NCBI GenBank assembly: GCA_030704615.1
Contig: CM060731.1
Location: forward strand, 78,492,001-78,556,000
Direction: 5' to 3'
DNA length: 64,000 bases
DNA from: Takakia lepidozioides
Lineage: Eukaryota; Plantae; Bryophyta
The notes under the pieces are model-generated. The model was not told the DNA's origin. It ran no database searches and saw only the letters and a program-made list of their open reading frames with translations. The position numbers and the translations under genes are program-made. Shown in pieces: positions 6,543-35,342 of the stretch. Every line of letters starts with the position of its first letter. Position 1 is the stretch's first letter.

Positions 6543-8865
6543 TGTCAAGTTATTTTACCACTAGTGTGAAGTTAGCTAGGAAATAACTAGCTTTTATATA
6601 TTGACATTTGGGATTGACCCAAGTGTATCTTCACGGCAGATCGCGGTGGGCTCATCTTTCTCGAGTTGAGCCTCACCGTGTCTAGCTATGGCGTCGTAGT
6701 GTGGATTCCCCATGGCATGGGGTGCACTTGGCTCGACTTAATATATGAGTGATGTTTTCATGTGCAAGTATGTGAGTTTGAGAGAGCTTGTGTGCTTGTA
6801 TCATTTCTTTCTTTATCACTCGAGAAAGATCAGCTCAAGTCTGTGAATGCCAGGTTCGAGTTAGTTGTAGCACTTGTGTTTTCAGTTCATGAGAAGCGGT
6901 TCAGCCTAGAGTGCAAAGGCGAACAGGTTGCAGGTTTGCAATGGATAGAGAGGCGGGTAGCCTATGTTGAAGGGCGGCGTTGCATAGCTCAACGCTATGG
7001 CAACCAAGTTTGGGCTTCTAGTGTGAAGCGGAGGAGATGCTGGCCACAAGTGGGCGAACTGGTGGTCGTCTTCTTCAGCTGCAGGCCGAGTTAAGGAGCT
7101 GCAGGAATGTGTATTGCGTATGGGAAGCTAGCATGTTACAGGTTGAAGATGATATGATCAGCTCCAGGTATTTCTGCCCGAAACTAGTTGTTGCGGGTAG
7201 ATGAGGAGCAGCCAAATGGTGGAGCTGTGAGGGGATGCATCGCAGCCCATTGGGAGCTTCAGCTCCAAGCTCATGAAGAGGTATGAGTGAAGAGAGGGGA
7301 TTGGTCCCTCTTGTGTGCAAATTTGTGCACTTGTGAAGCATGTGCTGAGTTGGAGTTTCAATTTGAAACTCAGCAGTGTAAGGGCTCTTGGAGTGGCAAG
7401 AGCGGGGCTGGAATGGCAGCAACGAGGCGCTCTAGAGCCAGGGGATAGTGCAGGTGCACCAAATTTGTAAATGTGTGTATTTTCAAATTTGTTTTTGTGA
7501 GCTTCATGAAGAAATGGAGCTTGTTGGGCAGCATATTGCTTGCTTGTTGAGTTTAGGGTGCCTTTGGTGGGTCGTGAGAGCCCAAGAGAGCATGGCAATA
7601 GGTCTGGTTGCTTCGCAGAAGCCATAGTTCGGCGGCAGCAGGTGCAGGAACAAACCCCGGTTCGGGGAGAGCTCGGGAACGCGTGGGAACGCCCAGGAAC
7701 GCCTCGGGAATGCATGAGAACTCGTGGGGAGTTCCAGGGAACGCAGGGAACAGTGGCCGTGATGGGCTGTGGGGGCGGTATCACAAGATACCACGAGCCC
7801 AGGCCGTGACTATTGACCGTGACCGTTGACCGTGACTGTGGGAAGCCATGGTGCAGATACCACGGGTTGGCACGGTGACCAGATGGTGGGGATGGCGGGC
7901 CGTGAAGGCTCGTGGGCGTGGTACCACGGGGTATCACGGGGCAGCCCGTGGCCAACGAGCGCCTAGGGCGGGCCGTGAGGAGTCGTGGCGGTTGGAGCCA
8001 CGGAAGGCCGCGAACAGGCAGAGTAAAAATAAAATTATTTAAATTAAATTTAAAAATTTAAAAAAAAAATCACTCGTTTCGTGGGACCTTGATGGGGAGG
8101 CTGGGCTCTAAAGAACAACGGTTTTGAGCTAGCTAATCTGGCAGAACAGTCGGAATTGCCTCCCTGTTGTGTTTTAACAAAGGGGATTACTTCCCTGTAG
8201 GTAATCTTTTCGGGTTCTCAGCCCAATTCTTAACTATGGGGGAGACCAGCCTGCAGGTAATTCCTTTGGACAGAATGTTGTTGGGGCCTATATGTACCTC
8301 TATTTGCTCCATTTTTGAACCTTCAGCGAATGGTGTGGTTTCCTGAGGTGGTTCCATTCTGAGGAATGGCTGGTGGACGTAAGGAGGCACTGGCGGACCC
8401 TATGGAGGCTTGCATAGGGCCTTGGAGGCCAAGTTTCATGAGCTCGTGGAGAGCGGTTTGAGGAGTGTCTACATGATGCTCTCATGGTCATGCAAGTGAG
8501 AGAAGTGAGAAAAAAGAGGGTGTTGGGATGAGAGCGTGTTGGGGATAGGCATTGCTTTAGCTCCCGGGGGGTGCACTCTTTATAAACTGTGTGTATCACG
8601 TGCGTTCGTCGCCTAATAAAAAAACCCCCTGTATACGGGTCCTTGGATAATTTATACCCCCTCCGTACATACTTTTTGAAGATTATAAAATCCCCTCCTG
8701 TAAATATACAAAAAATTTACAATTTTCGAAAAGTACCCCTTCTGTATGTATATTCTCATTTTTCATCATTAAAAATAACCCTCCAATATGTATATGTATG
8801 TTTTTATATTATATCGAATTTATTCATTTAAAACATAATAAAATCTAACAAATTAATTAAAAAAA

Positions 8866-9360
8866 TTATTTGCCTTTGATAAAGTTGTCAAAGACTTTTC
8901 GGTCATTTGCATCAAGAACATATGTGTTTGACTTGACATTGTACTTTAAACATGCTAACGCGATAATGGAATCCAAATCAACCATCATGTTATCCGTCAA
9001 ATCGTACGTATAGACCCCTCCTCGAATTTTTTGGTACCATGCTAACCCAATCTCCATATGAGAAGGACGCTCCAATAAATCAACAGAATCCCTACATTCT
9101 ACAAACCGCTTATTGATTTTCTTCCGCATTCTTTGAACCCTGCCCAAATACCAAGTGCCTTTGGTTGCTCCTCTGCAGGTTTTCCCTGGTCTACCTTTCC
9201 TGTTTGTAGTTTGGATCGCAGTCTCCCCATCAACAAAAAATACAGCACAATCCGAACCCAATCCCAAGCTCGTGGCTTTGTTGCTGGTAGTTGGTTTGTT
9301 TTCTCGGCTTTGTTGCCGCTGCTGTTTCCAGTTGACCATCCACCCACATTGTCCCACCAT
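8866..9360 (-). pseudogene. Probable C-terminal fragment of the transposon-encoded protein
   Basis: Protein-like 164-aa ORF (DCAVFF..GTWYLGRVQRMRK..WY..YTYD) ending just inside the left TIR and cut at its 5' end by LINE sequence; family not recognised. Confidence 0.4.
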
Positions 9361-9379
9361 TGACTGGGGTCAGAAAAGT

Positions 9380-10060
9380 GTCTCATTCCAAAGCTTCTCT
9401 TCATATCTGTGGTGCTATTGTAGGGTGACTTCAATGCCCAAGTGGGCAAAGGGCTCCATCAGGACGATATCATTGGGTCTTATGGTGAGGACGAGCTGAA
9501 TTCTAATGGCAGACGGTTAATTAACTGTCTGGAAGAGCTTCAGCTTTTGACCTTGATTAACAAGACAAGAGGTGACCAAGTGCAGTGGACTCGTGAGAAA
9601 TCCCAAACTGGGGAACGTTCCATTGTGGACTATATAATGGACAAAAAATTTGTTCCCCCAGTGTGCCAATGTGTTGATCGACAGAACTGATATTGGTACC
9701 TCTGACCACTTTCTGGACTGAGATCAAAAGATGTTTTCCCAAGGCCAGAGTAGAAGAGATTCTCAAGGACCTGGACCTGGATCCGCAAGTCTTGACCCTG
9801 CTGGATAAATCAGACTTAGAGGCTGTAGTGTCCAAAGCCATGTCTATTGCCATGAGATTGTCTGATGAAAATGAAGTTAGGCATAAAACTTCCCTGAACT
9901 TGTTTCTAGTCAGTGACATGGGGGAGGACATCTTGGATGACCTAAGGGTCCACCCACTCTCGGCACTAGACTGAAATTTAAACTCAGGGAAGGAAGCCTA
10001 CCTTTGAACATGAAACAGAAGCAGAGAGGAAAGGGGGAGTGCACTCTCCCAAGTGAACCT
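9380..10060 (+). mobile_element. Non-LTR retrotransposon fragments (APE endonuclease + C-terminal region)
   Basis: GDFNAQVGKG..NSNGRRL..SIVDYI..DH endonuclease motifs. 9745-10050 is an inverted homolog of 10935-11230. Confidence 0.8.
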
Positions 10061-10819
10061 GCATCATTCAGTTGGCAAGACCGTGTCTGAAAAATTGATC
10101 CATTTGAAGACACCACGGTGCAGCTGAGCACAGCCTGACATGACAACAATTAAACATCATACTGAGACAAGAGAAGCAGTCAAGGACACAGTCATGCATA
10201 TGGCAGCAAGTGATCACCCTTCAAACATGATTGAAAACATACATGAGGTCAAAGGCAATAAGAAATCAGCGAAGGGTACTGCAGCTAACAGTTGGAGTGT
10301 CTTTAAAGACAAAGGGAAGAGAAAGAAACACTTCACTGGCAATGAGGGGAGGCTGTGGAAACGCCAAGAGGATGGCACAAATGATAGAAATAACAGGGCT
10401 GGGCAAAGGATCCTGTAGGAAGAAGAAAGGGTATGTCAGCATGGAAAGGACGTGCGGCTCATTCCAACAGAAAGGGGAACATTCGTGCAGTTAAGTACAA
10501 CAACCAATTGCCCTTCAATTATGGCTGGAATTTTCCAAAAGGCGAGGGATGATAAGGATGAGATTGTACTCATAAGACGTTGTTTGCCGTAGCCTTGTGG
10601 CCATTGACCCGCGCCCAGTTTCAGTGGGAACAAAAGGAACAGGGCTGACGTTGGTAGTAAGATTTACCATCGTATAAGGAATTAATCGGGTTTTCCATAT
10701 ATCCTCTAGAAAACCCTTCACACAAGCATCAATCTGCTGTGTGTGATTTGCCCAAAAACTAGGCCTCAGGAGGGCCTGGGCTTTTGGCTCAGCCTCGAGA
10801 CTTTCAAAGTTGGTAAACA

Positions 10820-13200
10820 GGGGTACAGGCACAATTCCCTTGATAGAATTGAAGAGAGCTCTCTTTGGTGAGAGAACCCGGACAGCGTATCAGAAAATGA
10901 ATACTGTCTTCAGATTGCCCACACAACGGACAATTGCACTCTCCCTTTCCTCTCTACTTCTGTTTGCTGTTCAAAGGTAGGCTTCCTGCCCTGAGTTTAA
11001 ATTTCAGTCTAGTGCCGAGAGTGGGTAGACCCTTGAGGTCATCCAAGATGTCCACCCCCATGTCACTGACTGGAAACAAGTTCAGGGAAGTTCTCTGCCT
11101 AACTTCATTTTCATCAGACAATCTCATGGCAACAGACATGGCCTCAGACACTACAGCCTCTAAGGCAGATTTATCCAGCAGGGTCAAGACTTGCGGATCC
11201 AGGTCCAGGTCCTTGAGAATCTTTTCTACTCTCTTCTGCCAGGACTTAGCCTGTTTGACAGGGCGGTCCTGTTTCCAAGATATAGAGTCAATCAACTTAG
11301 GATATCTGGTGTTGGGCATATGTTGCAGCTGACCCCACCATCTGACCTTGAATTCATCTCGTCGGGAGCTTAAGGATGGAATGCCCAAACTCACCCCGAA
11401 CAGCCACATTGGCTGTTTTGGAGCATGCTGACATACACTCCTTAAGCACCCCCACTTGAATGGATTCTAAGACTTAGCCTGGTTGGAGTTATCAACCCAT
11501 ATAGCAGATCCGTACTCCAAGGCAGGTCTAATAACGCGACAAAGCATGGTTTTCTTAACCTCAGAGATGACCCCTCTGCAGTGGAAAAAATTAGTGAGCC
11601 CCAGAGCTTTGCCCTTGCCAGTTCGAACAACTTTCCGGATATGTGCATCCCAATTACAATTGGAGGAAAACTCAACGCCCAGGTAAGTGTAGGAAGGGAG
11701 GACCGGGATCTCTTGGCTACCCCACTGCCACTTAAGATCACTTCCTCCCTCTCCTCTGTCGTTGAATGCTACCACTGCACATTTGCTGACATTAGCCTAG
11801 CCCCCAAAGATCAAAGTATCTCTTCGCGCAATTAATCAACTCCTGAGTGTGATGCCACGGTAGTTCCCCGGTTCTTCTCTGTCACCCTTCTTGTATAGAC
11901 TGACAATGACCCCCTGTCGCCAGCGAAAGGGGATCATTTCAGTCTTCCAGATAAGGTTAAAGAGGAGAACTAGGGCCTCTATCATGGGATCGCCACCGTG
12001 CTTGATAAGCTCGTTGACAATACCATCAGGTCCACCAGCTTTATATCCATTTAAATGTTCAATTGCTTCCACAATCTCAGAAGAACTAATGGGAGCGTTA
12101 TAAGCCATTGAAATATACTCCAGTTCATCAGGGCTGTTTTGAATCATAGGAACAATTTTTCCAACTGTGTCCCTCCATTCAGCAGAAGACCCCTCACTGT
12201 TAGACCTAGAAGTTCTGCCAAGGATACTGTAGTGATTTTCAAAGGTTTTGACAATGTCAACCGATGAAGTCACCACTGCACCTTTAGTAGTCTTCAGCGC
12301 TTGTACTTGCTGACCGTTTTTAGGCTTGTACAAACGTTGAAGGGCCAACCATAATTTCTTGTTATTACCACCATGGTGGTTTGAGTTTATTTCACTGTAT
12401 AACTTATCCCAGTATAATTTCTTCTGAGACCTAACAAGCTGATTGATATCTTTCCGGAGCTGATAGTACCTCGCCCACAATTCTCTGTTGGTTTTCAAAT
12501 TGCAGCACTCTTTATAGAGGGCTCGTCCTCACCAAAAGGCCCAATGATATCGTCCTGATGGAGCCCTTTGCCCACCCGGGCATTGAAGTCACCCAATAGC
12601 ACTACCTGACCTTTGGCAAGGAATGAAGCACAGTCCAGCTTTACATCTTCGAAGGCTTTGTCTGCGTCAGCACTAAGGGTCCCCTCTGTGGGCATGTAAA
12701 CACAACCCACAAAGAGGTCCTTCATACTCATGCCGCCTTTCAGATTCAGTTTTAGCCAGATACTATGTTCGTACCTCAAACCCTTCTTGATAATTTCACA
12801 ATATCAAACAAGAAATCACGGACAAAGAATCCAACCCCTTTTTGACCGCGTTTGGCAGAGGCTGCCTTGAGAGTACACATCCTACCTGCCCATTTATAAC
12901 CATTGACATCTCCAACCAGTTTATCCGAAGTTTCCCATGTTTCTTGCCCAGCACAGATATGAATATCATTAGTCCAAAGGACTTGTCCCACTTCGAGTTG
13001 TTTCCTTTGGTTAGTAAGCCCTGAGAAGTTGAAAGTGGCCAGCCGCAAGCCAGCCCTTTGCATGTGAATTGTTTGTCGTCTAGGTAGGCTTGGGATTGCT
13101 CCTGGTATCCCAACCGTTCTGCAAAGGGGGACAGTTCCCCCATGTGTAGATTTTGCTCGTCTTGTGTGAACTCTTGAGTACAAATCCTTCAGATTCAGGA
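10820..13200 (-). mobile_element. Internally deleted LINE (APE endonuclease + RT), probably RTE/L2-like
   Basis: ATFNFSG..QETW..GVGF, CVYMP..LLGDFNARVG, KAGGPDG..W..YKKGD..NYRGITL, YTYLG, RPALEYGSAIW, C-terminal Cys/His motif; frameshifts and deletions. Confidence 0.9.
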
Positions 13201-13721
13201 CGTTCAGGTTCTGTACACTTAGGGGCATCTTGTTCCCTCTGGCTGTTTGGATTCAATAAGGATGAGAATAAGGCCTGATACAGTGAGTACAACCAGTTGT
13301 GTCACGCCATCATTATAGGAGAAGAAAATAGGCCTAATGTGCTCATTCCTCTGATGATTGGGAATCTTGATGCCCCAGTCCTCCTTTCATTGCTGCACAA
13401 CAACCACCACCACACCCGCATATCATCAACCGATCAGCCCAGGCTGCCCCCACATTCCCGCGCACTTACTTCATCCCCTTCGATTCCTGGCCTCTACATA
13501 CATCACAACCCAAACCTTCTCCCATCAGTGCCCCACCACATTCTGGTGCCCTCCCATTGTCCTACCATGCCTGTGGAGAGGAAGGGGAGACGAGAGGAGG
13601 AAAAAAGAAGCCTCGGAAGGGAAGGCGAACACGGAGAGGAGGAGAAAGAAAAGAGAAAGCCGCGGGAGGTCATGGGAGAAAGATCGTGGGCGAAAAAAAA
13701 AAAAAAAAACAAACATAAACA

Positions 13722-13792
13722 AACGACGATTCCACGATTCGATCCCGGATGCATCGCGTCGTAATCGCCATTCTTACCACTACCCTATCCCC
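13722..13792 (-). pseudogene. Degenerate tRNA-derived sequence
   Basis: Minus strand has GTAGTGGTAAG (A-box-like) and CCGGGATCGAATC (B-box-like) followed by a T-run; the acceptor stem does not pair well. Confidence 0.3.
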
Positions 13793-14405
13793 TAAAAAAC
13801 TCAACACCCCCGCCTGTAAAATTTATTTAAGGTTTTTTAAACCCCCCTCTGTATGTATAATGTTGTACATGGGGGGGTTTAAAATACCCCCTCCCTGTGC
13901 ACGCACTTGGCTGGTACATTAATGAGGAGTGTAACCCCCCGGCGTTTTAGCTTCCCTTCCTCGTAGTTTTCCACCTTCTCTGTAGGCCGAGCCTTTCCGT
14001 AGGTGAGCAAGTGTCAGTAGACACTGTGGAGTTGTAAGTGTGTGGGAGTTGTTGTTTTCTTCTTGTGTTTGGATCCCTTCCTACACCTCATGCTTGATGT
14101 GCCCATGCTAGTTTTGTGTGGTCGCTTTGATTTTATAGGTGGTTGACTCGGGCTTTAGATCGCCGATCCAACCCTAGAGCATGCTGTCGATGGTGAGGCT
14201 GGGTTGATGAGCAGTCAGACCATCTTTGTTTCTCATGTGGTGAGGTTAGAGGTGATGACAAGCCAACCATGGAGTGCCTGCGGTTGATGCAAGTGCAGAT
14301 GCAGGCTAGGTTAGGACCTAGTATTCCAAACCACTAAGCCGCATCAGGTTCTCTACCCAGTTACCTTGTGGAGAGGGGTTAGGGACATTTTCATGACCGG
14401 TTTGA

Positions 14406-17400
14406 GTGTCAGTTTGTCAACACGGGGTGCCACTAGTTGATGGGAAAAGTGCTGGTACGAGCACTAGCGATACTAGCGGGGTTACGAGACGGGTGTGCGG
14501 TTTAGGCCCCTTCACCCTCCTGTGTCTTCTACGGAAGGTTCCAATTTGGATTGTGAATCAGGAGAACTCAGCCACCTCCAGCAGAGCAGGATGACATGCA
14601 TGGTACGGCGGAGTTGCCTGCCATGGTTGCTCACACTCCATGATGGATACGAGCAAGGATTTGCGCAGGCTGCTATGGACTGGTACAACAAGCCTGGGTA
14701 GAGGCCTTCGTACCGTCAGGAGAAAGGAGAGTGCAGTGATTGCACCAGGAACCACCTTAGTTGTTGCCATTGGACACCACACCTCTTGTGTGGCATTGCC
14801 CGGATGAAGACATATGTCTTCTGGACTTGTTTGGCGGGATCAGCACTGGATTGGCTTGGCAGTATTGCAGGCAGGTGTACGAGTTCGACGTTACCTGTAT
14901 GTGGAGAGGGATGAGACTGCATGTGCTTGTCTCACTGCGCCATGTGCTCATTTAGTACCAGCAGTACGGCCCGATTTGTTGGCAGTGTCTGCAGTTCGTG
15001 GATACCAACAAGCTTTGGCCAGCAAAGTTCCACGACCGGACTTGATGCACACTGGCCATCACCCTGGCCCGAGAATCACCCATCAGTGGCACATTCTCCA
15101 AGATGGTTCTGCTGGAGATACAGCTTGATGAAGCTACAAGTGGTGCAAAATCCGCACCATCTCCCAAAACAGACCCGTCCTCGAGTCTCGCAATCCATTG
15201 CCATGCCCAACAGTGTTGCTGGATGCAGCTGCAGTGGGTCATGGGCTCATCGTCCACGGCTATGGTGGACTAACTTGATGCCACCCGCACTGCTCAAGCG
15301 TGCATTTGATGGGGGTGCAGCGGTCAGCACCCTCACAGTGGATAGCATTTTGGACACACAGGGAAGCAGTCTCAACGTGTGAGACACGATGACCGTTCCG
15401 CCTTTGGCAGTGGTCAACAGGATGGGTCACACAAGCAGCATGTCCCTACACTGCTCAGCTTCCCAGGATCCCATGCTTTTCGGGATGGTGACCTGGCCTC
15501 TTGTGGGATAGCCAGTTGCAACATTAGTGGAGCCCAATGCTGACGAGCTCGAGCGGGCGATGGTTTTTAACACAGGTCCCACCACGGCGGTGCATCTCTT
15601 TCTGAGCATCACGTCGTCAAGGTGGGGGCAAGCAATGGATCTCATTGCTTGACCTAGATTATCAGCTTGGCTATGGCTGAGCAGCGCAGAGTACGGAGTA
15701 CACTTCCCTTCATGGTCTCCCTGCTACCGAGAACGGTACAGGTAGCGAGTTGGGGCGAGCAGGTGAGGACCACGAGGTGCAGGCCGCATCCATGGCATAC
15801 GTGGGATGTGCTCGAGGTTCAGAAGGAGTTGGCAGCCAATCGGCGGTGATGGATCAGGTTGGGGATTTTTTCTCGGATTGAGGAGGTCCTCAAGGATGGG
15901 ATGATGGGGCAGGATGAGATATTGTCACTGACAGAGAAGCAATGGTCACTGCTCAAGGGTTGCAGCATAGCAACCACGGGACGCGTCTTCTACCTCTAAG
16001 CCTGTTGGACTCAAGGTTGCAGTCACGAGGACAACGGGAGCCTGATGTTGGACCTATAGTCACCGGAGGAGAGAGAGACGACGTATACGGCGGTTCTTGA
16101 GGGCTTACAGGAACTGCTTTGCCTTCAGTTTGAAGGACTTAGGAGCACTGAAGGGTCAAGAGATTCGCATTGAATTGGCTACTGACACGCCAATCTTTCG
16201 GAGACCCTATAGATACAGTGACATGGAGAGGTCCTTGATTCAGATGAGAACTCAGGACCTTTGGAGGCTGGTTTGGTGGAGCTATCTGGGGGAGAGTATG
16301 CTTCAGCCACAAGTGATGCCAGCCAAGAACGATGTCTTTGGCAATTGGACGGAGAGACGTATGTGCGGTGATTACCGGCCTGTAAATCGTCAGGACCAAG
16401 TCCGATAGGTATGCCATGCCAACACCAGAGGAGATCTTTGATGCCATTGGGCATGCCAAGGTCTTTAGCATGTTGGATTTACAATCCAGATATCACCAAT
16501 TGCCGATCAAGGAGGCAGATAAGCAAAAGACGGCATTCTGTGGGATCAATGAGCACGGGAAGTATTGCCTATACCAGTGGCGGTTCTTACCATTTGGGCT
16601 TAAGAACGCTCCGATAGAGTTTTAGAGAGTCATGGACAGGATTCTAGCAGGGGTGGAGTTTGCTCGGTGCTACATAGATGACATCATCATCTTTAGTGCT
16701 ACGGTGGGAAGAGCATGAGAGACATCTTCAGGGGGTATTTGAGCGCTTGAGGGCACACGGATTCAAGATACATCCGGGAAAGTGCAAGTTTTTCCACAAC
16801 CAGATTGAGTATCTGGGTCACATGATATATCCTGGGGATTGGGGGGCAGCTAAGGTAGAGTCCATTGCACAGGTTCCACGCCCCACGGATATGAGCCGAG
16901 TTTTGAGCTTTCATGGGGTTAGCAAACTATTATAGACGGTTTGTTAAGGGTTTAGTGCCATTGCAAAGGCTCTAACCAAGCTGACCAGGTGGACCAGGAG
17001 TGGCAGTGGGAGATGAGCAAGAACAAGCTTTTCCAAGAGCTCAAGGCGAGGTTGACCTCGGCGCCCATCTTGAGACGACCTATCAGGGGGCGTCCTTTTC
17101 AATTGCATACAAATTGGAGCATGCTGGGGCTTGGAGCGGTGCTCACACAGGTGGATGATGAGGGAAGAGAGTTCGTAGTGGCTTATGCTAGCTGCTCGAA
17201 CAACGTTGCAGAGTCTAAGTATAGCTCATATGAGGGAGAATGCTTAGCTGCAGTGTGGGCCGTGGCACACTTCAGGTGCTATCTATATGGCAATCTCTTC
17301 ACCCTTGTCACGGATCACCAACCACTCAAGTGGTTGATGGAGTCGACAAGCTTACGGGAAGCTTGCACGGTGGGCACTCATACTTCAAGAGTATGACTTT

Positions 17401-18297
17401 CAGGTGGTGCATCGATGGCATGGTGAGACGGACGAGGAGATGATGCCCGGATGGCATGCATCTGCATTTCTGTGTATCTTGGCAGCGGAAGGCCAGGTTG
17501 GACCTGCAATAGGGATGACTATAGATCAAGTGTCTGAGGACCCTGAGGCCAGCAATGAGCAAGGTGGCGCCAAAGATATACATGAGGATTCAGTTGTGTT
17601 GGACTACCTCCGCACTGGAGACACTGCAGCCACTGTGACTGCCAAGGAGAGAGATCAGATCCTACAACGAGCCAAGAGGTTCAAGTGGGAGGGGACACAC
17701 CTGCTCCGAGTGTGGGAGGATGGTCGAGTGAGGATTGTGCCTCACCCAACACAGCGGGCACGGTTAGTGCGGCATGCCCATGAGGAGTTGGGGCATTTTG
17801 GGGTGCGACGCACTCATAGTCTACTGCAGGGGCAGTATTGGTGGCGTGGTATGCACACAGAGGTGCAACAATTTGTGGGGTGCATGGTGTGTGACAGGGT
17901 GCATGCTTCATTCAATGCCCCTACTCCACAATTGCACCCTCTTCCGATCATGGGATTGGGCTACAGGTGGAGTTTTGACTTCGCAGGGCCGTTGCCACTG
18001 ACCATGCGCCACAACAAGTACGTGTTGGTGATGGTGGAGCACTTCTCCAAGTGGATTGAATTGGTTCCATTGCCTGATAAGGCTAGTGAGGGAGCTGCTA
18101 TGCATTCTTGCATTATGTGCTTAGCCGATTCGTTGGTGCCCAGCTGAGGTACTCACGGACCAAGGGAGAGAGTTCTTGGGGGAGTTTCAGGCTTTGTGTG
18201 ACAAGGCCTTGATAGACCAACGCACCACTTCTCGGGATCATCCTGAGGCCGATGGCTTGGCAGAGAGAGTTGTTCAGACAGTAAAGAAGGGTTTGCA
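14406..18297 (+). pseudogene. Gypsy copy 1 polyprotein remnant: gag N-terminus, (gag/PR deleted), C5-MTase, RT, RNase H, integrase
   Basis: ICLLDLFGGISTG, HRPRLWWTN, RMCGDYRPVN, PFGLKNAP, YIDDII, LHTNWSMLGLGAVL, HEELGHFG..CMVC, DFAGP; many indels. Confidence 0.9.
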
Positions 18298-18299
18298 AC

Positions 18300-19029
18300 G
18301 CTACATCTATGTATCACAAAAAACAATCTATATATAAATATATATATACATATAAATATTTCCTTCAAGTTCCTTCAAGTTCATCATAAGGGGGTCTCTC
18401 TTGTGACGCCGGGGAGTTGTAACCTCCACAGCCTTTAGTGCCCAGCCCCAGCCCCAGCCCAGCATCGTCGCCGTTGTTGAACCCCCCACCGTCAGGCGCC
18501 CCAAGCGACGTCTTATGTGGACCTAAACTAACCACAACACCATTGCGACCCCCCTGTGGCGACGCCGTTCGGACCCCCCGACGTCGCAACGTTGGGCGTC
18601 CCAGCGCGGGGCGCCCCAACGACGCTTTTGTGAAGTTGAGGGCCGCAAAGCCCAAAAAAAAAAAAAAAAAAAAAACTCTCACTGTGGTGATGTCGTTGCG
18701 ACCCCTGGCGTCGCAGAGGCGCTGGGGCGCCTTTAGTGACGCTTTTTGCGACACTGAGGCGTCGTTATTTTTATTTTTTATTTTACTTTACTTTTATTAT
18801 TTTATTTTTATTCCGATGCGGGGCGTCGGAAGAAAAAAAATCCGTCGCATCAAGAGCCATCTTCCTCTTCATGCCACCTTACGACGGCTGGGGGCTCGTA
18901 ATGGTGTCGCAGCGGGGGTTTGCGACGCGGGGCGTCGCAAAAAAACGTCGCGGGCTCGCGTCGCGGGCTCAGCCGGCGGGCGTGGGGGCGCGGCTGGCGT
19001 CGCAAACCCCCCCCCCATTTGCTATAGTG
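18300..19029. mobile_element. One end of a CACTA (En/Spm) element
   Basis: Terminus GCTATAGTG (reverse complement CACTATAGC) with many direct and inverted GCGACGCC subterminal repeats; opposite end not found. Confidence 0.65.
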
Positions 19030-20520
19030 CTGTGCTGAGGCTAGTGATGAACAAGTGGTTCCATATAACATGAGGATTCGGTTGTGTTGGACTACCCCCT
19101 CCGCACTGGAGACACGGCAGCTAGTGTGATTGCCAATGAGAGGGATCAGATCCTGCAACGAGCCAAGAGGTTCAAGTGGGAGGGGATACACCTGCTTCAA
19201 GTGTGGGAGGATGGTCGGGTGAGGATTGTGCCTCACCCAACACACAGCGTGCACGGTTAGTGCGGCATGCCCTGAGGAGTTGGGGCTTAATTTTTTGGAG
19301 TGCGACGCACTCATGTCTATGCAAGTCTACTGCAGGGGCAGTATTGGTGGCGTGGTATGCACACAGAGATACAACAGTTTGCGGCTAGGTGCATGGTGTG
19401 TGACAGGGTGCCGTGCTTCATTCAACGCCCCTACACCATAGTTGCATCCTTTATCCATCATGGGATTGGGCTACAGATGGAGTCTTGACTTCGCATGGCG
19501 TTTGCCAATGACGATGCTTCACCAAAGATACGTGTTGGTGATGGTAGAGCACTTCTCCAAGTGGATTGAGTTGGTTCCATTGCCTGACAAGACTAGTGAG
19601 GGGTTTGCGTGATGCATCCTGGATCGTGTGCTTAGCCGATTCGGTGCTCCAGCTGAGGTACTCACGGACCAAGGGAGAGAGTTCTTGGGGGATTTTCAGG
19701 CTTTGTGGTGATAAAGCCTGGATAGACCACCGTACCCCTTCTCGGATCATCCTTGATGCCAATGGCTTGGCAGAGACTCTCGAGTGTACGACGGTGAAGA
19801 AAGGTTTTTGCGCAGGTAATTGGCCTTGCAAAAGGGAAACCTAGGAGATTGGGATCTTCAGGTACCTTGTTACCATGGGCTACAGGTTTAGCAAGCAAGC
19901 ATCACTTGTCTCCTTATCACCATATTTCGTTCTCTTGTTGGCGAGCCGGATTTGCTGCATCTATTCGCATGATGATGCAGTAGTCCTCAACCTGATTATC
20001 CGGATAGGTGACACAAGCATGTGCCCCGAGGGCAGAGTTGGTTCAGAGAATCATGTCTATGGGCTTGAGAATCTTGCTATTGTCCCAACACCGAGACATA
20101 TTGAGGTATGCCACATACGTGGAGGGGGATATCGGCCAGGTGTTCGGCGTTTCCACCCTGGGACTATGTTGTATCTGCAACACAGCGCCTACGAACTTGG
20201 ATGTCACAGGCAGGACGGATTCTAAGGGTCAGGGAGGTGTTACCTTCAGGAGTGTTGATTCTGGAGGGTCAAGATGGCTGGTAGGAAGGACCATGTGCGT
20301 AATATGTGCCATCACCTTCCACATGTGGATAGGAGGATAGATCCCCAACCTTGTAGTGGTACCTGCAGGATTGCGTTGCATGCTATGTGGGCATGCTCGT
20401 GGTGCCGCCACTATGCTGGTGTGTGATCGATGCTCAAGAGGTTAGCACATGGGATGCTTGACACCACCTCTTGAGAGGGTTCCTGATGGAGATTGGTTAT
20501 GTCCACACTGCTTGGGATAG
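19030..20520 (+). pseudogene. Second, more decayed integrase + PHD segment of Gypsy copy 1
   Basis: Homologous to 17540-18297 and 32720-34185; ends LRCMLCGHARGAATMLVCDRCSRG*HMGCLTPPLERVPDGDWLCPHC. Confidence 0.85.
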
Positions 20521-20835
20521 TGATAGTGGATATGACTAGTGGCAGCTAATAAGACATGGGAGGCCAAGCTCATAGGGGCTTGTGGCTACCTGGACTTAGG
20601 GCACCTAAGCTCCAGCTAGGGGGGCGATTGTGATGGACTAGTGGCTGCACTAGTGGTGGCTAGTGGCAGCCTAGTGGTGGACTAGTGGCTGCACTAGTGG
20701 TGACTAGTGGCTGCCTAGTGGCAGCCTAGTGGTGCACTAGTGGTGGACTAGTGATAGACTAGTATTTGGTGTGCACATGTATTGTGTGGTTTTGGACAAC
20801 GATGTAGTTGTGTAGCGATATGTATGCGCACGACA

Positions 20836-25671: not shown

Positions 25672-26301
25672 TATGAATAATTAAGGGAAATTTGATAAAG
25701 ACTTTATAACCAAGGGAGGTACATTCATTGTAAGTTTTATCATGTGGGAAAGTTATAACATGGACTTACCATTTATTGGCTCGTCTTTATTCTAAAGAAG
25801 AGACTACGCATCAGTGTCAAAAATCGCTAAGCCCCTGTTCGTTTACTTAGAGGTGAGCCAACAAACGGCTAGTGGCTCCTCCTTGTGAATAGCGAAATCT
25901 ATTTTCATCTATAATAAACTTGAAAAATCATCCATTTATTTTTCATCAGTTTGTCAAGTTAAATAAGCACAGTGTGAAAACAGCTAGCATAAAACTAGTT
26001 GTTTGTATTTAACACTTGGATTTAGGTCAAGTGTTAAATCAGGTGTCAAGTTTAGTTTGACACCTGGTCCGTCTTATCTTCACGAGAGCGGCAGTCGCGT
26101 GGCTCATCTCTCTCGAGTTGAGCCTGCGCGACCGAGCTCTTGCATCGTTTAGGACTGAGTGTGCTTATGATGGGAGTATAGGTTGTTGTGGGGTGGAGTC
26201 CCCATAGCTTGGGGTGCCCCTGGCTCGACTTCTATTCTAAAGAGTGATGGTTTTGGTTGTCATGTTTTGTGTCAACAGTGTGTTCTTAGCTTTTCTTATC
26301 A

Positions 26302-26317
26302 CTCGAGAGAGATGAGC
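26302..26317 (+). promoter_or_regulatory. Self-priming primer-binding site
   Basis: CTCGAGAGAGATGAGC lies directly after the LTR end TTATCA and is the exact complement of GCTCATCTCTCTCGAG at 26102-26117; it lacks the TGG start of a tRNA PBS. Confidence 0.8.
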
Positions 26318-26687
26318 TCTATCTAGTTTTCTAGTGCTAAGCTAGATACGATGTTTTTGTTTTTAAGCACTATTATAATGTAGCTTGGTCACGGGGAGCC
26401 TGCAGTTAGACTGGTTAGGTGTGCAGAGTGGAGCAGAACAAAAAGCTTGAGATGTTGTTACGATTTTTGTCAACCTGTGTATATATCTGAGAATGGGGAT
26501 TAAGTGGCAGCAATAAAGAAAGAGGATATAATGAGGAAGCGGCCAATGGGTGACCACTGGAGCGGTGATTTCAGGGCAGGCTGTGGTAGCATTCTAGAGT
26601 TGTTCGATTAGTGATGCGGCTGCAACCAGCCACCCAGCAGCGACGCCGCATTGTTCTAGTCTTGGAGACGTAAAGAACAAACACTTC

Positions 26688-28150
26688 ATGGTGGATGCTC
26701 CGAAGGGCCATCTGGGAATTAGGGACTGCTATGCGGAGTTTGTGGACGAGAAGGGTATGTCTGTGCCTCTGAACAACGTGTACCTGCACCACTGGATCAC
26801 GTACGAGTTCTCTGTACCGAGCAATGATGTAGACACCCATAAGGAGATGCTACTGAAATCTGTGGAGAAGAAGCACTCTTCGTCTCAATCTACCTTACAC
26901 GCTGCCTCATTTGAAGGCTGCTGGCTCCGGCGTGAAGCTCTCAGCTGGACAGACATTGATGCAGTACTTTGGTGTTGGTGCGGAGACCAGGCGCACCAAG
27001 TCAACTATCCCCGCGCCCTTTGCTGAAGAGACTGCAGCTCCTTCCCTGCTTGCTGAGGGCTACAAGCCGATATGGATTCTTAATGTCCACGGCCGTGACA
27101 CACGGGGGGCCGTCAACAAACTAGGGTGCAGTGAGTGCCGGTTGCTTCTTTTCTACTCTTCTCTGAAATCTTTTACACCTGTTTTGAGGAAGTTCTCTAT
27201 AGGAAGACAATGTGTAAGGGCCTCGTCCCCACCAGTCACTAAATGCCTCACAAATGGCTGCAGCCCACAAGGTTTACCTTAGCCCATAATCCCTATTGAC
27301 CTGGCACAGAGCTATAGCGGACAACAATCCGTTGCAGGGAGCTGAGTGATAAATTATGGGCTGACGTTGGCGTCATTTTAAAAGCATGAGATGGATTCCA
27401 GTACTGCTTCTCCAGCCCCTAGCTTATCATGTGCCGTCGTGTTAACCCTTACAAAGGAGGGTAGAAAATAGAGAAGAAGCTAGGGGCCGGTGTACTGCCA
27501 TAAGGTCGACAGTGCCTGAGCGATCCAGTTGTGTTTATTATTTTACCCGAATTAGAGGCTACAACAATTTGCAGTCAGCTACTGGATTTGGCGTGTAATC
27601 TTCACAATGTGACTGTGGACTGCAAAGGAGATCCTTTAGTAGAAAGTTACCTGGGATGCCTTTAGTGCTGCACAGATGGGAAGCGCTGTGTTGTGAAGGA
27701 GGGCTTTGAAGGCGATGAGCTTGAGATGACCATCTACCTACAGTACACATGGGAATATATTACCTGGGATGAGTGCGTTGAGCCCTGTCAAAGGTGGTCA
27801 TCGGGTTCACCAAATCTATCGAGTATATTGTCGAGGGATGTGGCAACACTGATCCCGCTTCTCCGGAATGTGTAGATACACGGGAGAGGATAATAGGTGC
27901 CCCTGTTTGAAGAGATTGGTGATTTAGCCGAGGCAAATGGGAAGAAGGGAGCGGGCCTTCTGTTATGGCTGCCACCAGGAACTCCTGTTTGCAGGCATCT
28001 CTTTCACAAGCTAGTTGCCCCTTTGGAGATGATGTGATCTGCGCAGTGTCGCACTTGCATCCTTCAGCCCTGGATTGTACTATGTTTGGGGAAGATGGGC
28101 GTGTGATTTGCTACTCTCCTCCAATCTGTGGTACTGGACAGGCGGCTGAC
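26688..28150 (+). pseudogene. Stress up-regulated Nod19 (SURNod19)-family gene fragments inside Gypsy copy 2
   Basis: PKGHLGIRDCYAEFVDEKGMSVPLNNVYLHHW, QYFGVGAETRRT, WILNVHGRDTRGAVNKLGCSECR, YLQYTWEYITWD, VICAVSHLH..FGEDGRVICYSPPICGTG match the recalled family pattern; frameshifted. Confidence 0.75.
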
Positions 28151-28237
28151 ATCAGATGTATCGCATCAGCATACACCATTGCGTTGGTGAATCCAATTTG
28201 GTTGGTGCATTAATCGATGGGCACCTGGGAACGGTGA

Positions 28238-29468
28238 CTATACTGTAGCATAAGCCACTACGAACTCTCTTCCCTCATCATCCACCTGTGTGAGCACCGC
28301 TCCAAGCCCCAGCATGCTCCAATCTCTATGCAGCTGAAAAGGACGCCCCCTGATAGGTCGTCTCAAGATGGGCGCCGAGGTCAACCTCGCCTTGAGCTCT
28401 TGAAAAGCTTGTTCTTGCTCATCTTCCCACTGCCACTCCTGGTCCACCTTGGTCAGCTTGGTTAGAGCCTTTGCAATGGCATTAAATCCCTTAACAAACC
28501 GTCTGTAATAGTTTGCTAACCCCATGAAAGCTCGAACTCGGCTCACATCCGTGGGGCGTGGAACCTGTGCAATGGACTCTACCTTAGTCTGCTGTACCCC
28601 CAATCCTCCAGGATATATCATGTGACCCAGATACTCAATCTGGTTGTGGAAAAACTTGCACTTGCCCGGATGTAACTTCAATCCGTGCGTCCTCAAGCGC
28701 TCAAATACCCCCTGAAGGTGTCTCTCATGCTCCTCCACCGTAGCACTAAAGATGATGATGTCATCTATGTAGCACCGAGCAAACTCCACCCCTGCTAGAA
28801 TCCTGTCCATGACTCTTTGAAACTCAGCGGGAGCGTTTTTAAGCCCAAATGGTAAGAACCGCCACTGGTATAGGCAATCCTTCCCGTGCTCATTGATCCC
28901 CCAGAATGCCGTCTTTTGCTTATCCGCCTCCTTGATCGGCAACTGGTGATATCCGGATCGTAAATCCAACGTGCTAAAGACCTTGGAATGCCCAATGGCA
29001 TCAAAGATCTCCTCTGGTGTTGGCATGGCATACCTATCGGACTTGGTCTGACGATTTACAGGCCGGTAATCACCGCACATACGTCTCTCCGTCCAATTGC
29101 CAGACATCCTTCTTAGCTGGCATCACTGTGGCTGAAGCATACTCTCCACCAGAGAGCTCCACCAAACCTGCCTCCCAGAGATCTTGAGTCCTCATCTGAA
29201 TCAAAGACCTCTCCATGTCACTGTATCTATAGGGTCTCCGAAAGATTGGCGTGTCAGTGGCCAACTCAATACGGATCTCTTGACCCTTCAGTGCTCCCAA
29301 GTCCTTCAAACTGAAGGCAAAGCAATTCCTATAAGCCCTCAGGAACCGCCGTATACGTCGTCTCTCTCCTCCGGTGACAATGGGTCCAATGTCAGGCTCC
29401 CAATTGTCCTCCGTAACTGCAACCTTAAGTCCAGTGGGCTTAGAGGTAGAGGACCCGTCCCGTGGTTG
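28238..29468 (-). CDS. Gypsy reverse transcriptase + N-terminal RNase H (one frameshift near 29105)
   Basis: RRPYRYS, RMCGDYRPVN, LDLRSGYHQ, PFGLKNAP, YIDD, YLGH, DWSMLGLGAVL..VVAYA. Confidence 0.95.
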
Positions 29469-30850
29469 CTATGCTGCAACCTCTTGAGCAGTACCCCCTT
29501 CCTGCTCAGTCAATGACAAGGCCTCATCCTGCCCCATCATCTCATCATTGAGAACCTCCTCATCCCGAGAAGAATCCCCAACCTCATCCATTACAGCTGC
29601 CTTCGCTGCCAACTCCCTCTGAACCTCGAGCACCTCCCACATGTGCCATGGATGTCTACACCTCGTGGTCCTCACCAGCTCGCCCCCACTCGCTGCCTGT
29701 ACCGTCTCGGTAGGCAGAGAGACCGTCAAGGGAAGTGCACTCCGCACTCTACGTTGCTCAGCCATAGCCAAGCTGACAATCCAGGTCAAGCAATTGAGAT
29801 CCATTGCTTGCCCCAACACCTGACGACGTGATGCCTCAGAAAGAGAAGGCACCGCCGTGGTCCCAGTGGAAAACCCCATAGCCCGCTCTCGCTCGTCGGC
29901 ATTAGGCTCCACTAACTGCTGCAACTGAGCATCCCACAGGAGGCCAGGTCCACCATCCCGAAAAGCATGGGATCCTGGGAAGCTGAGCAGTGTAGGTAAT
30001 GCTGCTCGTGGTTGACCCACCCTGTTGACCACTGCCAAAGGCGAACGGTCATCGTGTCTCACACGTTGAGACTGCCTTCCTGTGTCCAAAATGCCATCCA
30101 CGGTGAGGTGTGCTGGCCGCTGCACCCCATCAAATGCACGCTTGAGCAGTGCGGGTGGCATCAAGTTAGTCCACCATAGTCGTGGACGATGAGCCCGTGA
30201 CCCCACTGCAGCTGCATCCAGCAACACTGCTGACCCAAGCCACGACCGGACTTGATGCACACTGGCCATCACCCTGGCCCGAGAATCACCCATCAGTGGT
30301 ACATTCTCCAAGATGTATGCTGGAGATACAGCTTGATGAAGCTGCAAGCAGCGCAAAATCCGCACCATCTCCCAAAACAGACCCGTCCTCGAGTCTCGCA
30401 ATCCATTGCCATGCCCGGCTGATGAATGCCCTTGGCAGGGCCAACCTGCCACTATCAGATCAATGGAGCCAACCTGCTCCAAATCTTGCGCCCCCAACAA
30501 GGAAATGTCTGCTGGCAAGGCTTGTTGGTATCCACGAACTGCAGACACAGGCAACAAGTCAGGGTACTGCTGTACCAATTGAGCCACATGGCGTAGTGAG
30601 ACGCGTCGTGCAATCTCATCCCTCTCCACATACAGGTAACGCCTTACCCGCACACCTGCCTGTAGCACAGCAGCCAATCCGGTGCTGATCCCGCCAAACA
30701 AGTCCAGAAGGCAAATGCCTTCATCCGGCCGCTGCCACACAAGAGGTGTGGTGTCCAATGGCGACAACTGAGGTGGCCCTGGTGCAATCACCGCACTCTC
30801 CTCCTCTCCTGACGGTACAAAAGCTTCTTCCCAAGCTTGTTGCACCCGTC
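29469..30850 (-). CDS. C5 cytosine DNA methyltransferase domain (DNMT3-like) within the retrotransposon polyprotein
   Basis: Ordered motifs I LLDLFGGISTG, II VERD, IV AGWPCQ (catalytic Cys), VI ILENV, VIII AHRPRLWWTN, IX ERERAMGF, X RRQVLGQAM in an uninterrupted frame. Confidence 0.93.
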
Positions 30851-32284
30851 CATCTGCAACTTGCCAAATCCTTGCTCGTACCCCACAACGGAGTGTGAGC
30901 AACCATGGCAGGCAACTCCGCCGTACCATGCATGTCATCCTGCTCTGCTGGAGGTGGCACATCCTCTGCATGGGCATTGCCTTCCAGCAACTCTCCAGGC
31001 CAACTAACGGCAACTGTGAAGGCGGCTAGTGTTGGCATCTTGCCCCGCTGGGCAGCTGCAATACCCCCAATGAATGTCACAGGGAGCTGTGCACGGCGAC
31101 CATCCCCTGACTGCCATCCAGGCCTGTAGGATGCTGTCTCCTCCCAGAAATCCAGGGTGAAGCCCATGGGGTATAACACTGCCCCACCAACGAGGACATC
31201 GTAAGAGACCGCGTCTGTCACAATGGCCTTGGCTCGCATCACTGAGCCATCTACAGGATGATCCGGCTGCAGTCTAATAGCCAACTGATGCCGTGTCATG
31301 CCGCGAGCCTGCTCTGATCCTCCCAGAGATGTCTGTATCTGGAAAGGACAAGGCTCCATATCCGCCTCCATGAGGCCCAAACCTGCAATAGCAGCTCTGC
31401 CCAACATCAGTGGCTGAGCTCCTGAGTCCAACAAGACCCGCAGTGGCCGGTACTTCTTGCCTGCCGGTCCACTCAAAGTGAAAATGCCTCCCTGGTTGTC
31501 TAACAAGACAACTCCAGGTGTCACCATGGCGCGCTCAATGGCTGGCCTAGCTGGCAGCTCCGTCAACCTGGCAGCTGCAACTTGCCATGGCGCAGCCGTG
31601 GCAGTCTTGACCCTCAAATCCGAGGATCCCTCTGCCACTATACCTTCCACTAACTCCGCAGAAGATGAAGTGACCTCCCCACTCTCACAGAGAGTTGCTG
31701 CTAGTCTGAACACTGCAGCTGGTCTCACCCCCGGCGTCGCAATCATGGTTGCCGAGAACAGTGGGGCTTGACACACAGAGGTGGCTGCCCCCAATAACAC
31801 ACCGGCTGCACTAGCCTTGGTAGCAGGTGTCAGTGCTGCACGTGTAGCTCTCCCCAATGGCATAGTAACCTCCGCCTCGGTAACAGTCGGGCGAGAACTA
31901 GGTGCCATGGATGGCGTTGACACTGTCTCCGCCAAGGTGAATGACTGAGGCAGCCTCGCCTGACGGCTTGCCTCCCCACGTTGTGGATCCAACTCCACCT
32001 CTGCACCTCGTGGCTCAGGAACTCGTGCTGCTCCTCGAGTCACGGCTGCAGCAGACTCCACCTGCTCTAGTGGTAGTGCTGCTCCGCACATGAATCCCAT
32101 GCCTCCCATATCTCCTCCCTCAGGAGCAGGAGGTGGACCATCCCGCCTGGGAGCCGGTACCGCCTGAGCTATAGCCATGGCAGCGAGCCTCTGCTCTAGC
32201 TGCTGAAGCCGATTGGCCATGCCTTGGTCAACACCCTGACCTCCGCGTCCTTGGCCATGTGGAGCTTGCCCTTGGCCTGCACCT
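30851..32284 (-). CDS. Gag C-terminus / linker + aspartic protease
   Basis: LRVLLDSGAQP active site and YDVLVGGAVL flap/GxD-like region; homologous to 58283-59690. Confidence 0.85.
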
Positions 32285-32288
32285 CGTC

Positions 32289-34188
32289 AATGCTGCAGAG
32301 TCTAAGTATAGCTCATATGAGGGAGAATGCTTAGCTGCAGTGTGGGCCGTGGCACACTTCAGGTGCTATTTATACGGCAATCTCTTCACCCTTGTCACGG
32401 ATCACCAACCACTCAAGTGGTTGATGGAGTCAGACAAGCTTACGGGGAAGCTTGCACGGTGGGCACTCATCCTTCAAGAGTATGACTTTCAGGTGGTGCA
32501 TCGACCGGGTTTGGTCAATCGAAATGCAGATGGGTTGAGTCGCAATCCATGCACGAGCCAGCAGGATGACACTGGAGCTCGGTGGCATGGTGAGACGGAC
32601 GAGGAGATGGTGCCCGGATAGCATGCATCTGCATTTCTGTGTATCTTGGCAGCGGAAGGCCAGGTTGGACCTACAACAGGGATGACTGTAGATCAAGTGT
32701 CTGAGGACCCTGAGGCCAGCAATGAGCAGGGTGGCGCCAAAGATATACATGAGGATTCAGTTGTGTTGGACTACCTCCGCAGTGGAGACACGGCAGCCAC
32801 TATGACTGCCCAGGAGAGGGATCGGATCCTACAACGAGCCAAGAGGTTCAGGTGGGAGGGGACACACCTGCTCCGAGTGTGGGAGAATGGTCGAGTGAGG
32901 ATTGTGCCTCACCCAACACAGCGGGCACGGTTAGTGCGGCATGCCCATGAGGAGTTGGGGCATTTTGGGGTGCGACGCACTCATAGTCTACTGCAGGGGC
33001 AGTATTGGTGGCGTGGTATGCACACAGAGGTGCAACAATTTGTGGCTAGGTGCATGGTGTGTGACAGGGTGCGTGCTTCATTCAACGCCCCTACTCCACA
33101 ATTGCACCCTCTTCCGATCATGGGATTGGGCTACATGTGGAGTCTTGACTTCGCAGGGCCGTTGCCACTGACCATGCGCCACAACAAGTACGTGTTGGTG
33201 ATGGTGGAGCACTTCTCCAAGTGGATTGAATTGGTTCCATTGCCTGATAAGGCTAGTGAGGGAGCTGCGTATGCATTCTTGGATTGTGTGCTTAGCCGAT
33301 TCGGTGCTCCAGCTGAGGTACTCACGGACCAAGGGAGAGAGTTCTTGGGGGAGTTTCAGGTTTTGTGTGACAAGACCTTGATAGACCACCGCACCACTTC
33401 TCGGGATCATCCTGAGGCCGATGGCTTGGCAGAGAGAGTTGTTCAGACAGTAAAGAGGGGTTTGCGCAAGTATGGCTTGCAGAAGGGACACCTAGGAGAT
33501 TGGGACCTTCAGTTACCCTGGCTAGCCATGGGCTACAGGTTCAGCAAGCAAGCATCACTTGCCTCCTTCTCACCATACTTTCTTCTCTTTGGCCGAGAGC
33601 CGGATTTGCCTACATCCATTCGCAGAGAAGCTGCTACAGTTCTTAACCTTGACGATCCGGACGTGTGGGCACGTGCATGTGAGCAGCGTGCAGAGTTGTT
33701 CAAGAGAGTCATGCCCATGGCTTTCGAGAACCTTGCCATTGCACAACACCGTGATACGTTGAGGTATGCTACCATACGTGGTGGGGGCTATCGTCCTGGG
33801 GTTCGGAGATTCAACCCTGGTGACTATGTCTATCTGCAGCAGACTGCTCCTACGACCCTGGATGTGACTGCAGGACGTGTTATTTTGAGGGTTCGAGAGG
33901 TTTTGCCCTCAGGCGTCTTGGTCTTGGAGGGTCGGGATGGCATAACTTGGAAGGACCATGTGCGTAATTGTGCGCCATGTCACCTTCCGAATGTCGATGA
34001 CAGGATTGACCCAAACCTGGCAGTGGTATCTGCAGGTTTGAGGTGCATGTTGTGTGGGTCTGCTAAAGGGGCAGCCACCATGCTGGTGTGTGATCGATGC
34101 TCTAGAGGTTGGCATATGGGATGCTTGACTCCACCTCTTGAGATGGTTCCGGATGGGGATTGATTATGTCCACAATACATTGGATAGT
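32289..34188 (+). CDS. RNase H C-terminus, integrase and C-terminal PHD finger (two nonsense mutations)
   Basis: YSSYEGECLA..TDHQPL..NADGLSR; HHCC (HEELGH..CMVC); DDE (LDFAG, TDQG, AER); PHD CMLC..CDRC..HMGC..(W)LCP. Confidence 0.95.
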
Positions 34189-34435: not shown

Positions 34436-34445
34436 AGGGGGGCGA
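34436..34445 (+). promoter_or_regulatory. Polypurine tract
   Basis: AGGGGGGCGA followed by T-TGTG (start of B1); the same motif precedes B in copy 1 (~20618-20627). Confidence 0.8.
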
Positions 34446-35342
34446 TTGTGGTAGACTACTTTATTGTGCATATATGTGTGGTGTGGTTTGGACAGCGATG
34501 TAGTTGTGTAGCGATATGTATGCGCACGACAGCTGTCAAGTTAAATAAGCACAGTGTGAAAACAGCTAGCATAAAACTAGTTGTTTGTATTTAACACTTG
34601 GATTTAGGTCAAGTGTTAAATCAGGTGTCAAGTTTAGTTTGACACCTGGTCCGTCTTATCTTCACGAGAGCGGCAGTCGCGCGGCTCATCTCTCTCGAGT
34701 TGAGCCTGCGCGACCGAGCTCTTGCATCGTTTAGGACTGAGTGTGCTTATGATGGGAGTATAGGTTGTTGTGGGGTGGAGTCCCCATAGCTTGGGGTGCC
34801 CCTGGCTCGACTTCTATTCTAAAGAGTGATGGTTTTGGTTGTCATGTTTTGTGTCAACAGTGTGTTCTTAGCTTTTCTTATCATTGTGGTAGACTACTTT
34901 ATTGTGCATATATGTGTGGTGTGGTTTGGACAGCGATGTAGTTGTGTAGCGATATGTATGCGCACGACAAGTTGTTCAATAACATGGATATCACCTAAAA
35001 GAGGTGCATCTAGAAAAGACACATCATTGAGAGGAGGTGACATGTAGGGAAGGCACAACAGTGGCTTAGTGATTTTTGACACTAATTCGTAGTCTCTTCT
35101 TTAAGAGCCAATAAAGTAAAACAAAAATAAAACACTTAAGAATAGATAAATATAACCGGATCACTCAATAACCAGTGTGACAACCGGAACTACTGATAAT
35201 CTACGGTTCAAATGGCTTTCGCACTATTGATTACCGAGGGGTATGAGATTTTATTTTTTTTGAGAATTTAAAATTTGACTAATCACCGGCAGGTATGAAA
35301 TTTCCAAAAAATTGATGTCTGTAATGGGCAGTTATAGAATAA

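Follow-up and report, generated by a model that had tools for sequence, protein, structure and literature searches.

The window, as we call the whole stretch of 64,000 nucleotides analysed here, contains a retrotransposon (copy 2) that we judge, with somewhat better than even confidence, to be a dead moss Ty3/Gypsy copy from a family that encodes a DNMT3 in its Gag frame, likely packages this enzyme, likely methylates its own cDNA with it and likely inserts from circles. The DNMT3 cargo is less new than the preliminary description implied, as the same kind has been published in Klebsormidium. The surprising part is a stop codon and the anatomy of the element ends, and it is from these features of the sequence that we infer the mechanism.

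The enzyme frame (29469-31025, minus strand) has 518 codons from stop to stop, lacks a start of its own and matches Pfam DNA_methylase with an E-value of 3.6e-13. Every motif that had been named in the preliminary description was found, namely LDLFGG (30707-30690), GWPCQ (30446-30432), ENV (30308-30300), AHRPRLWWTN (30194-30165), ERERAMGF (29894-29871) and RRQVLGQAMD (29828-29799). The described location between protease and RT was also correct, since the LLDSGA of a protease is found upstream of the frame and the YIDD of RT downstream, all on one strand; the region homologous to the protease has Asp_protease matches in the related loci L061 and L070. Resemblance to DNMT3 was evident in several ways. 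The best PDB matches were DNMT3A and DNMT3B, with the single sequence (E 9.5e-11) as well as with a profile (E 1e-20, compared to 5.5e-9 for DRM and 2e-5 for M.HhaI), motifs I to X are colinear with DNMT3A and the circular permutation of plant DRM is absent. This was further supported by an AlphaFold model (pLDDT 82.7, pTM 0.86) for which the top Foldseek match was DNMT3A (E 2.4e-17). Sequence and model together confirm a DNMT3-type cytosine methyltransferase with an intact domain and predicted activity.

Copy 2 reads AGTT, repeat A (350 nt), coding region, repeat B (87 nt), GC, A, B and AGTT (Table 1). It is non-functional, with gag lost, the pol block 28246-32287 inverted relative to RNase H-integrase and frameshifts near 30864 and near 29101. 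The preliminary description had made no mention of this breakage, of the missing start of the enzyme frame or of the in-frame stop between enzyme and RT. Public contigs from the same organism have a colinear joint without inversion in 4/4 runs and 2-base differences from copy 2 at both frameshifts (at 29101 in 4/4 runs), and in a contig from another study the enzyme end is followed colinearly by RT, RNase H and integrase. In run X1 the summed depth of pol including the enzyme was about a thousandfold that of the flanks; single-contig depths in run X5 differ about a hundredfold. Such figures are not a copy number, but they suggest a large family with equal abundance of enzyme and RT. The SURNod19-like fragments had a depth far below that of pol, and contigs covering them (window 26598-28245) had about seven times the depth of the flank in run X1, which suggests a small non-autonomous subfamily with a captured host gene.

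Table 1. Positions of the retrotransposon copies in the window and of the features of copy 2
Feature	Position	Strand	Basis or remark
Copy 1, A-coding-B form, decayed	6543..20835	+	flanks CCCT and CCCC
Copy 2, left 4-bp target-site duplication AGTT	25948..25951	+	identical bases recur at 34970-34973
Repeat A1, begins TGTCA; putative remainder of U3 plus R-U5	25952..26301	+	99.7% identity over 350 nt with 34534-34883
Putative self-primer, transcript 5' end	26102..26117	+	exact reverse complement of 16 nt 3' of A1
Predicted primer binding site of self-priming type	26302..26317	+	pairing with A1; compensatory change in copies 1 and 3
SURNod19-like captured host gene fragments, where gag is expected	26598..27279	+	Pfam PF07712, E 7.6e-15 and 1e-20
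RT and N-terminal half of RNase H, in inverted block	28241..29468	-	RVT_1, E 4.2e-33; frameshift near 29101
Conserved in-frame stop TAG, then CAA CCA (leaky-stop type I context)	29463..29471	-	same in copy 1
DNMT3-type C5 cytosine methyltransferase domain, 341 aa, unpermuted motifs	29745..30767	-	Pfam, motif, profile and fold matches
Gag C-terminal linker and aspartic protease (LLDSGA near 31417-31434)	30768..32287	-	frameshift relative to enzyme near 30864
Remaining RNase H, DDE integrase (H2C2, rve) and C-terminal PHD finger, with stops	32288..34160	+	Pfam
Polypurine-tract-like AGGGGGG(CG), directly 5' of B1	34436..34444	+	conserved before B in related loci
Repeat B1, ends ACGACA; putative first part of U3	34445..34531	+	100% identity over 87 nt with 34883-34969
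Internal attachment-like site ACGACA-GC-TGTCA	34526..34538	+	other 2-nt spacers in L007, L046, L053, L061, L070
Repeat A2	34534..34883	+	match to A1
Repeat B2; element terminates in CA	34883..34969	+	match to B1
Right target-site duplication AGTT	34970..34973	+	matches left flank
Copy 3: part of repeat A, primer site, gag, protease	58290..64000	-	stops short of enzyme; leaves window

A decayed homologue of the enzyme had been reported in copy 1, and we found it at about 14650-15940 as a relic with many indels and a small inversion (15030-15208); the protease region of this copy is deleted. Copy 1 also has two integrase regions (17412-18296 and 19035-20570), which represent a partial duplication or a nested insertion, and nested inverted repeats within 9409-12605 (9409-9496 with 12521-12605, and 9747-10043 with 10935-11232) that are probably inserted DNA transposons. 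GC-rich, strand-skewed degenerate tandem repeats occupy 22000-25700 beside copy 2 and 61250-63120 in the 5' region of copy 3. Adjoining copy 3, a SWIM zinc finger and long frames (55163-57607, minus) possibly belong to a Mutator-like transposon. The window further holds a PPR E-motif fragment (4299-4616, minus), a dual-specificity phosphatase exon (45876-46187, plus) and an intron-containing host ALG11 mannosyltransferase gene (39955-42750, minus). In a tree of 27 ALG11 rows the window gene grouped with mosses (100/99), where it formed a third branch next to Sphagnum and Ceratodon, and because of this position we regard the host as a moss of a lineage apart from these two.

The land-plant setting that had been proposed was upheld by this tree and by the family's range, as named relatives at 60-75% identity occur in Marchantia polymorpha, M. 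paleacea, Calypogeia, Riccia and Sphagnum. Cymbomonas is a distant named relative. None of the matches listed (69/69, and the best 120 of 196) bore the name of a vascular plant, nor was any Klebsormidium-named sequence among the matches listed. In the 50% library, 273 clusters matched at E up to 1e-30. In 154 long proteins the enzyme lies between protease and RT in 55, between RNase H and integrase in 97 and is unclear in 2; the second layout corresponds to a larger sister group (P0033-P0064 and many of P0368-P0508) whose hosts are probably green algae. Quick, midpoint-rooted trees of 44 elements (16 plus a random 28 of 61) separated the two layouts both for the enzyme and for RT (SH-aLRT 93 and 98). 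Such matching trees fit long co-inheritance; a single capture is not implied by them. We also kept 80 of 160 metagenome loci, in which the order, where reached, was gag-protease-enzyme-RT-RNase H-integrase-PHD except in a few rearranged or nested copies. One Sphagnum-like cluster, with up to 92% identity to named Sphagnum proteins, accounts for 75/80 loci, so that these represent only four or five independent groups. One locus (L061:976-8226) appears to be an intact element, its two open frames parted by one stop. That the enzyme is a family trait, as had been suggested, was thus borne out by the colinear contigs in other runs and by the domain being present at the same position in related loci.

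The ends of the element are unusual. In copy 2 the 16 nt 3' of A are an exact complement of a stretch within A, copies 1 and 3 have a compensatory change in primer and primer binding site (PBS) with 14/15 paired, and the Sphagnum-like family has different letters and the same pairing in 16/23 left ends (10 nt or more). The purine tract sits before B and not before A. With the primer site after A and the purine tract before B, the functional LTR is therefore B-NN-A and the element ends inside it. The B-NN-A site ACGACA-NN-TGTCA was constant wherever seen (Table 1). Nine loci had both ends, and the 4-bp duplication was exact in six, retained in 3/4 bases in two and absent in one; of the complete window copies, copy 2 has an exact duplication and copy 1 one of 3/4 bases. 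The right ends that were complete (n = 22, omitting L044, where the contig ends, L062 and L063, with a deletion over the site, and the rearranged L073) stop at B in 19 cases, corresponding to 17 distinct insertions, and run on into A in 3. Copy 1 and most loci have the form A-coding-B, and A-coding-B-A-B was seen in copy 2, L053 and L046. The joint between A and B is different in each of the window, L046, L053 and L073, where it retains letters from the side of the polypurine tract (PPT) or of the PBS, or filler, and judged by these letters the variation resembles end-joined circle junctions.

Integration from circular cDNA best explains these ends. A transcript would start inside A and prime itself on the site after A, and plus-strand synthesis from the tract before B would generate B-NN-A as the functional LTR. 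The cDNA would then close into one-LTR or two-LTR circles and be methylated, probably at CG, and integrase would cut CA-NN-TG within the LTR, so that a one-LTR circle gives A-coding-B and a two-LTR circle A-coding-B-A-B. The former product would be a dead end because it has no second R; the latter could replicate again. For retroviruses and LTR elements, circular cDNA is considered a dead end. Joints of the CA-NN-TG type were also observed in other repeats behind a PHD-bearing integrase, in L023:8097-8414 and L048:16585-17237, possibly from related elements with similar ends.

The mirror form A-B-A-coding-B, which should arise when a two-LTR circle can be opened at either of its sites, was found in 0/23 left ends (about 3 expected, p ~0.03 by our own estimate), therefore cutting of circles would need to be directional, or else free circles are not involved. 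A one-directional template switch like that of DIRS/Ngaro could instead produce A-coding-B-A-B, and later B-B recombination A-coding-B. We find this unlikely, yet it deserves serious weight, since the similar repeat layout of the Klebsormidium element has been described as DIRS-like, and B-B recombination after insertion would retain the 4-bp duplication. It sits less easily with a B of merely 87-117 nt, as 19/22 complete right ends nevertheless lack A-B, or with joints that differ from copy to copy and retain letters of the PBS or PPT side, and a normal PPT and primer site predict ordinary LTR-type cDNA.

The second unusual feature is the stop between enzyme and RT, a TAG (29469-29471) followed by CAA CCA. 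Both neighbours were present in 61 loci, of which 3 with large insertions were excluded, and in the remaining 58 a stop was present at the orthologous site in 56 and followed by CAR in 53. The strict CARYYA context was found in only 5/58 loci, and 46/58 have CAACCC, with an ATG following in that Sphagnum-like family. Stops elsewhere in enzyme, RT or integrase were seen in at most 31% of loci at any other codon, and the reading frame was kept across the stop in 46/58. In L061 the two open frames, of 1369 and 1047 aa, are in one phase and parted only by TAG-CAG-TTA. The Marchantia models P0001, P0002 and P0007 (protein only) end 74 residues past the enzyme, compared to 91 in the window, and 41/154 long proteins are gag/protease-enzyme products whose end coincides with or follows that of the enzyme. 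A few distant relatives, P0028 among them, have a single open frame without the stop. This stop is a trait of the family. Tobamoviruses have UAG-CAR-YYA as their type I read-through signal (PMC3542737, available text), and it is matched exactly in the window copies, L004, L061, L065 and L070, whereas the Sphagnum-like family has CAACCC; in contrast to the viral case, it would here part Gag-protease-enzyme from RT-integrase. Most ribosomes would stop after the enzyme and a few would read through TAG-CAR into RT, RNase H, integrase and PHD. Given the conserved stop, the enzyme likely rides on Gag, with Gag-protease-enzyme as the likely major product and RT-integrase likely made by read-through.

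RT-integrase might also arise by re-initiation or from a separate RNA, with no read-through of the stop. The Sphagnum-like family has an ATG two codons past the stop, and about a third of its stops are TAA, both of which would suit this scenario. We nevertheless regard it as improbable, although not negligible, as the ATG is absent at this position in the window copies, L004, L061, L065 and L070, all of which have the strict CARYYA. The frame conservation in 46/58 loci and the one open frame of distant relatives such as P0028 likewise argue for read-through.

Selection on the enzyme was estimated with a purpose-written Nei-Gojobori script for window against loci. The enzyme had a median dN/dS of 0.105 (74/76 pairs unsaturated; median dS 2.3, hence near saturation), and the values were 0.072 for RT (10/48 unsaturated), 0.073 for integrase (24/32) and 0.155 for protease (26/52). 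The unsaturated pair L061-L065 gave 0.113 at a dS of 0.27, and two decayed copies gave 0.48. The family enzyme is thus under purifying selection with a dN/dS of about 0.1, rather than a value near 1. Two outcomes that the preliminary description had named as refuting, a dN/dS near 1 and absence from other full-length copies, were not observed. The possibility of a neutral passenger or of an assembly chimera can be considered refuted, since although both window copies are broken, this dN/dS, the same order in related loci and the colinear contig from another study all speak against it.

Made at Gag levels, the enzyme would likely be packed in the particle and could act there on the cDNA. Insertion is likely guided by the PHD finger to chromatin in which H3K4 is unmethylated, and pre-methylated DNA would match such surroundings. 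Fingers of the CHD4, PHF21A and KDM5A type are readers of unmethylated H3K4, as are the ADD domains of animal DNMT3. The PHD finger of L061 has its best matches in CHD4, PHF12, PHF21A, KAT6A and KDM5A (best 60 of 80 matches). This would also suit an enzyme that acts mainly on host DNA, at the insertion site or genome-wide, through the integration complex and the PHD finger instead of on cDNA. We give that option little credence, as the stop ties the enzyme to Gag and not to integrase, and Gag-level synthesis would fit a role in the particle better.

Still less credence goes to the idea that the domain is kept for nucleic-acid binding or RNA methylation and not for 5mC in DNA. A footprint of self-methylation was looked for, and CpG o/e of the element (0.51) was not below that of host DNA (0.37-0.46), i.e. 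there is no CpG loss beyond host level. The available text of PMC5890265 adds that the Klebsormidium homologue gave no methylation in yeast, a result its authors judged inconclusive, and that the DIRS-borne enzymes, as in the retrotransposon-borne SymbioDIRS-Dnmt3, methylate CG de novo in yeast; the latter counts against a role outside DNA methylation. So does the fold, which is that of DNMT3 and not DNMT2, and the Pro-Cys, which is preserved in no fewer than 63 of the 66 readable loci (14/80 dropped for gaps or stops; Pro-Cys lay outside the search patterns).

The closest known system is KnitGypsy-Dnmt3 of Klebsormidium nitens (de Mendoza et al. 2018), a Gypsy element with Dnmt3 in Pol, DIRS-like repeats and a Ka/Ks under 0.2 (PMC5890265, available text). 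According to the same text, the two share the Gypsy order protease-RT-RNase H-DDE integrase, an intronless, unpermuted Dnmt3-type polyprotein enzyme with catalytic residues, purifying selection and A-coding-B-A-B repeats. Compared by description, they differ in the conserved in-phase stop that parts enzyme from RT in the moss family, as the authors' reply to reviewers places the algal enzyme in one ORF with RT and RNase H (PMC5890265, available text), and in the host, a moss here and a charophyte alga there. On self-priming, an internal LTR attachment site, target duplications, the A-coding-B form and a PHD finger, the available text of PMC5890265 is silent.

Other elements share single features. 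DIRS/Ngaro elements use a tyrosine recombinase, whereas the moss family has an rve and H2C2 DDE integrase and 4-bp duplications. EpiLTRs are likewise retrotransposons with a cytosine methyltransferase, which is, however, sister to DNMT4 and accompanied by DAM and a chromodomain (bioRxiv 10.64898/2026.05.21.726589, available text). Tf1/sushi and moss Tcn1 have, like this family, a PBS complementary to their own 5' LTR, but as described in the available text they have two complete terminal LTRs while the ends here are split into A and B (PMC4600332, PMC6317226). Most Tcn1 have a chromodomain, in contrast to the PHD finger after integrase and the additional enzyme found here (PMC6317226, available text). 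Canonical LTR elements (REXdb Tcn1, Phygy) also have two complete LTRs at the ends, which the moss family lacks. PpDNMT3b, a host DNMT3 of moss, is a de novo CG and CHH methylase of the same family as the element enzyme, yet a cellular gene, whereas the latter is intronless and within a retrotransposon polyprotein (PMC6453930, available text).

According to Morozov et al., land plants such as tracheophytes lack transposons that encode a methylase (PMC6338049, available text), and later papers, in their available text, refer to streptophyte elements solely through citation of de Mendoza et al. 2018. In the literature searched, as far as its available text goes, Gypsy-DNMT3 elements are described only in an alga and not in a land plant. 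Relative to this literature the land-plant range is new, and since Marchantia, a genetic model, harbours the family, the role of a DNMT3 encoded by a retrotransposon can be tested. A sharp prediction follows from the stop, namely enzyme at Gag stoichiometry inside the particle, and the anatomy of the ends suggests an unusual mode of replication with circles integrating via a site inside the LTR. Tentatively, and a little short of even confidence, we extend this to a DDE-integrase lineage from green algae to mosses and liverworts in which the attachment site moved inside the LTR, circular cDNA is integrated and a Gag-linked DNMT3 provides pre-methylated copies, a lineage invisible to standard LTR finders. 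Surveys with such finders would miss the family because they require two full LTRs (PMC6317226, available text). The circle route, if true, would explain this, and it would also explain the DIRS-like repeats of the algal element.
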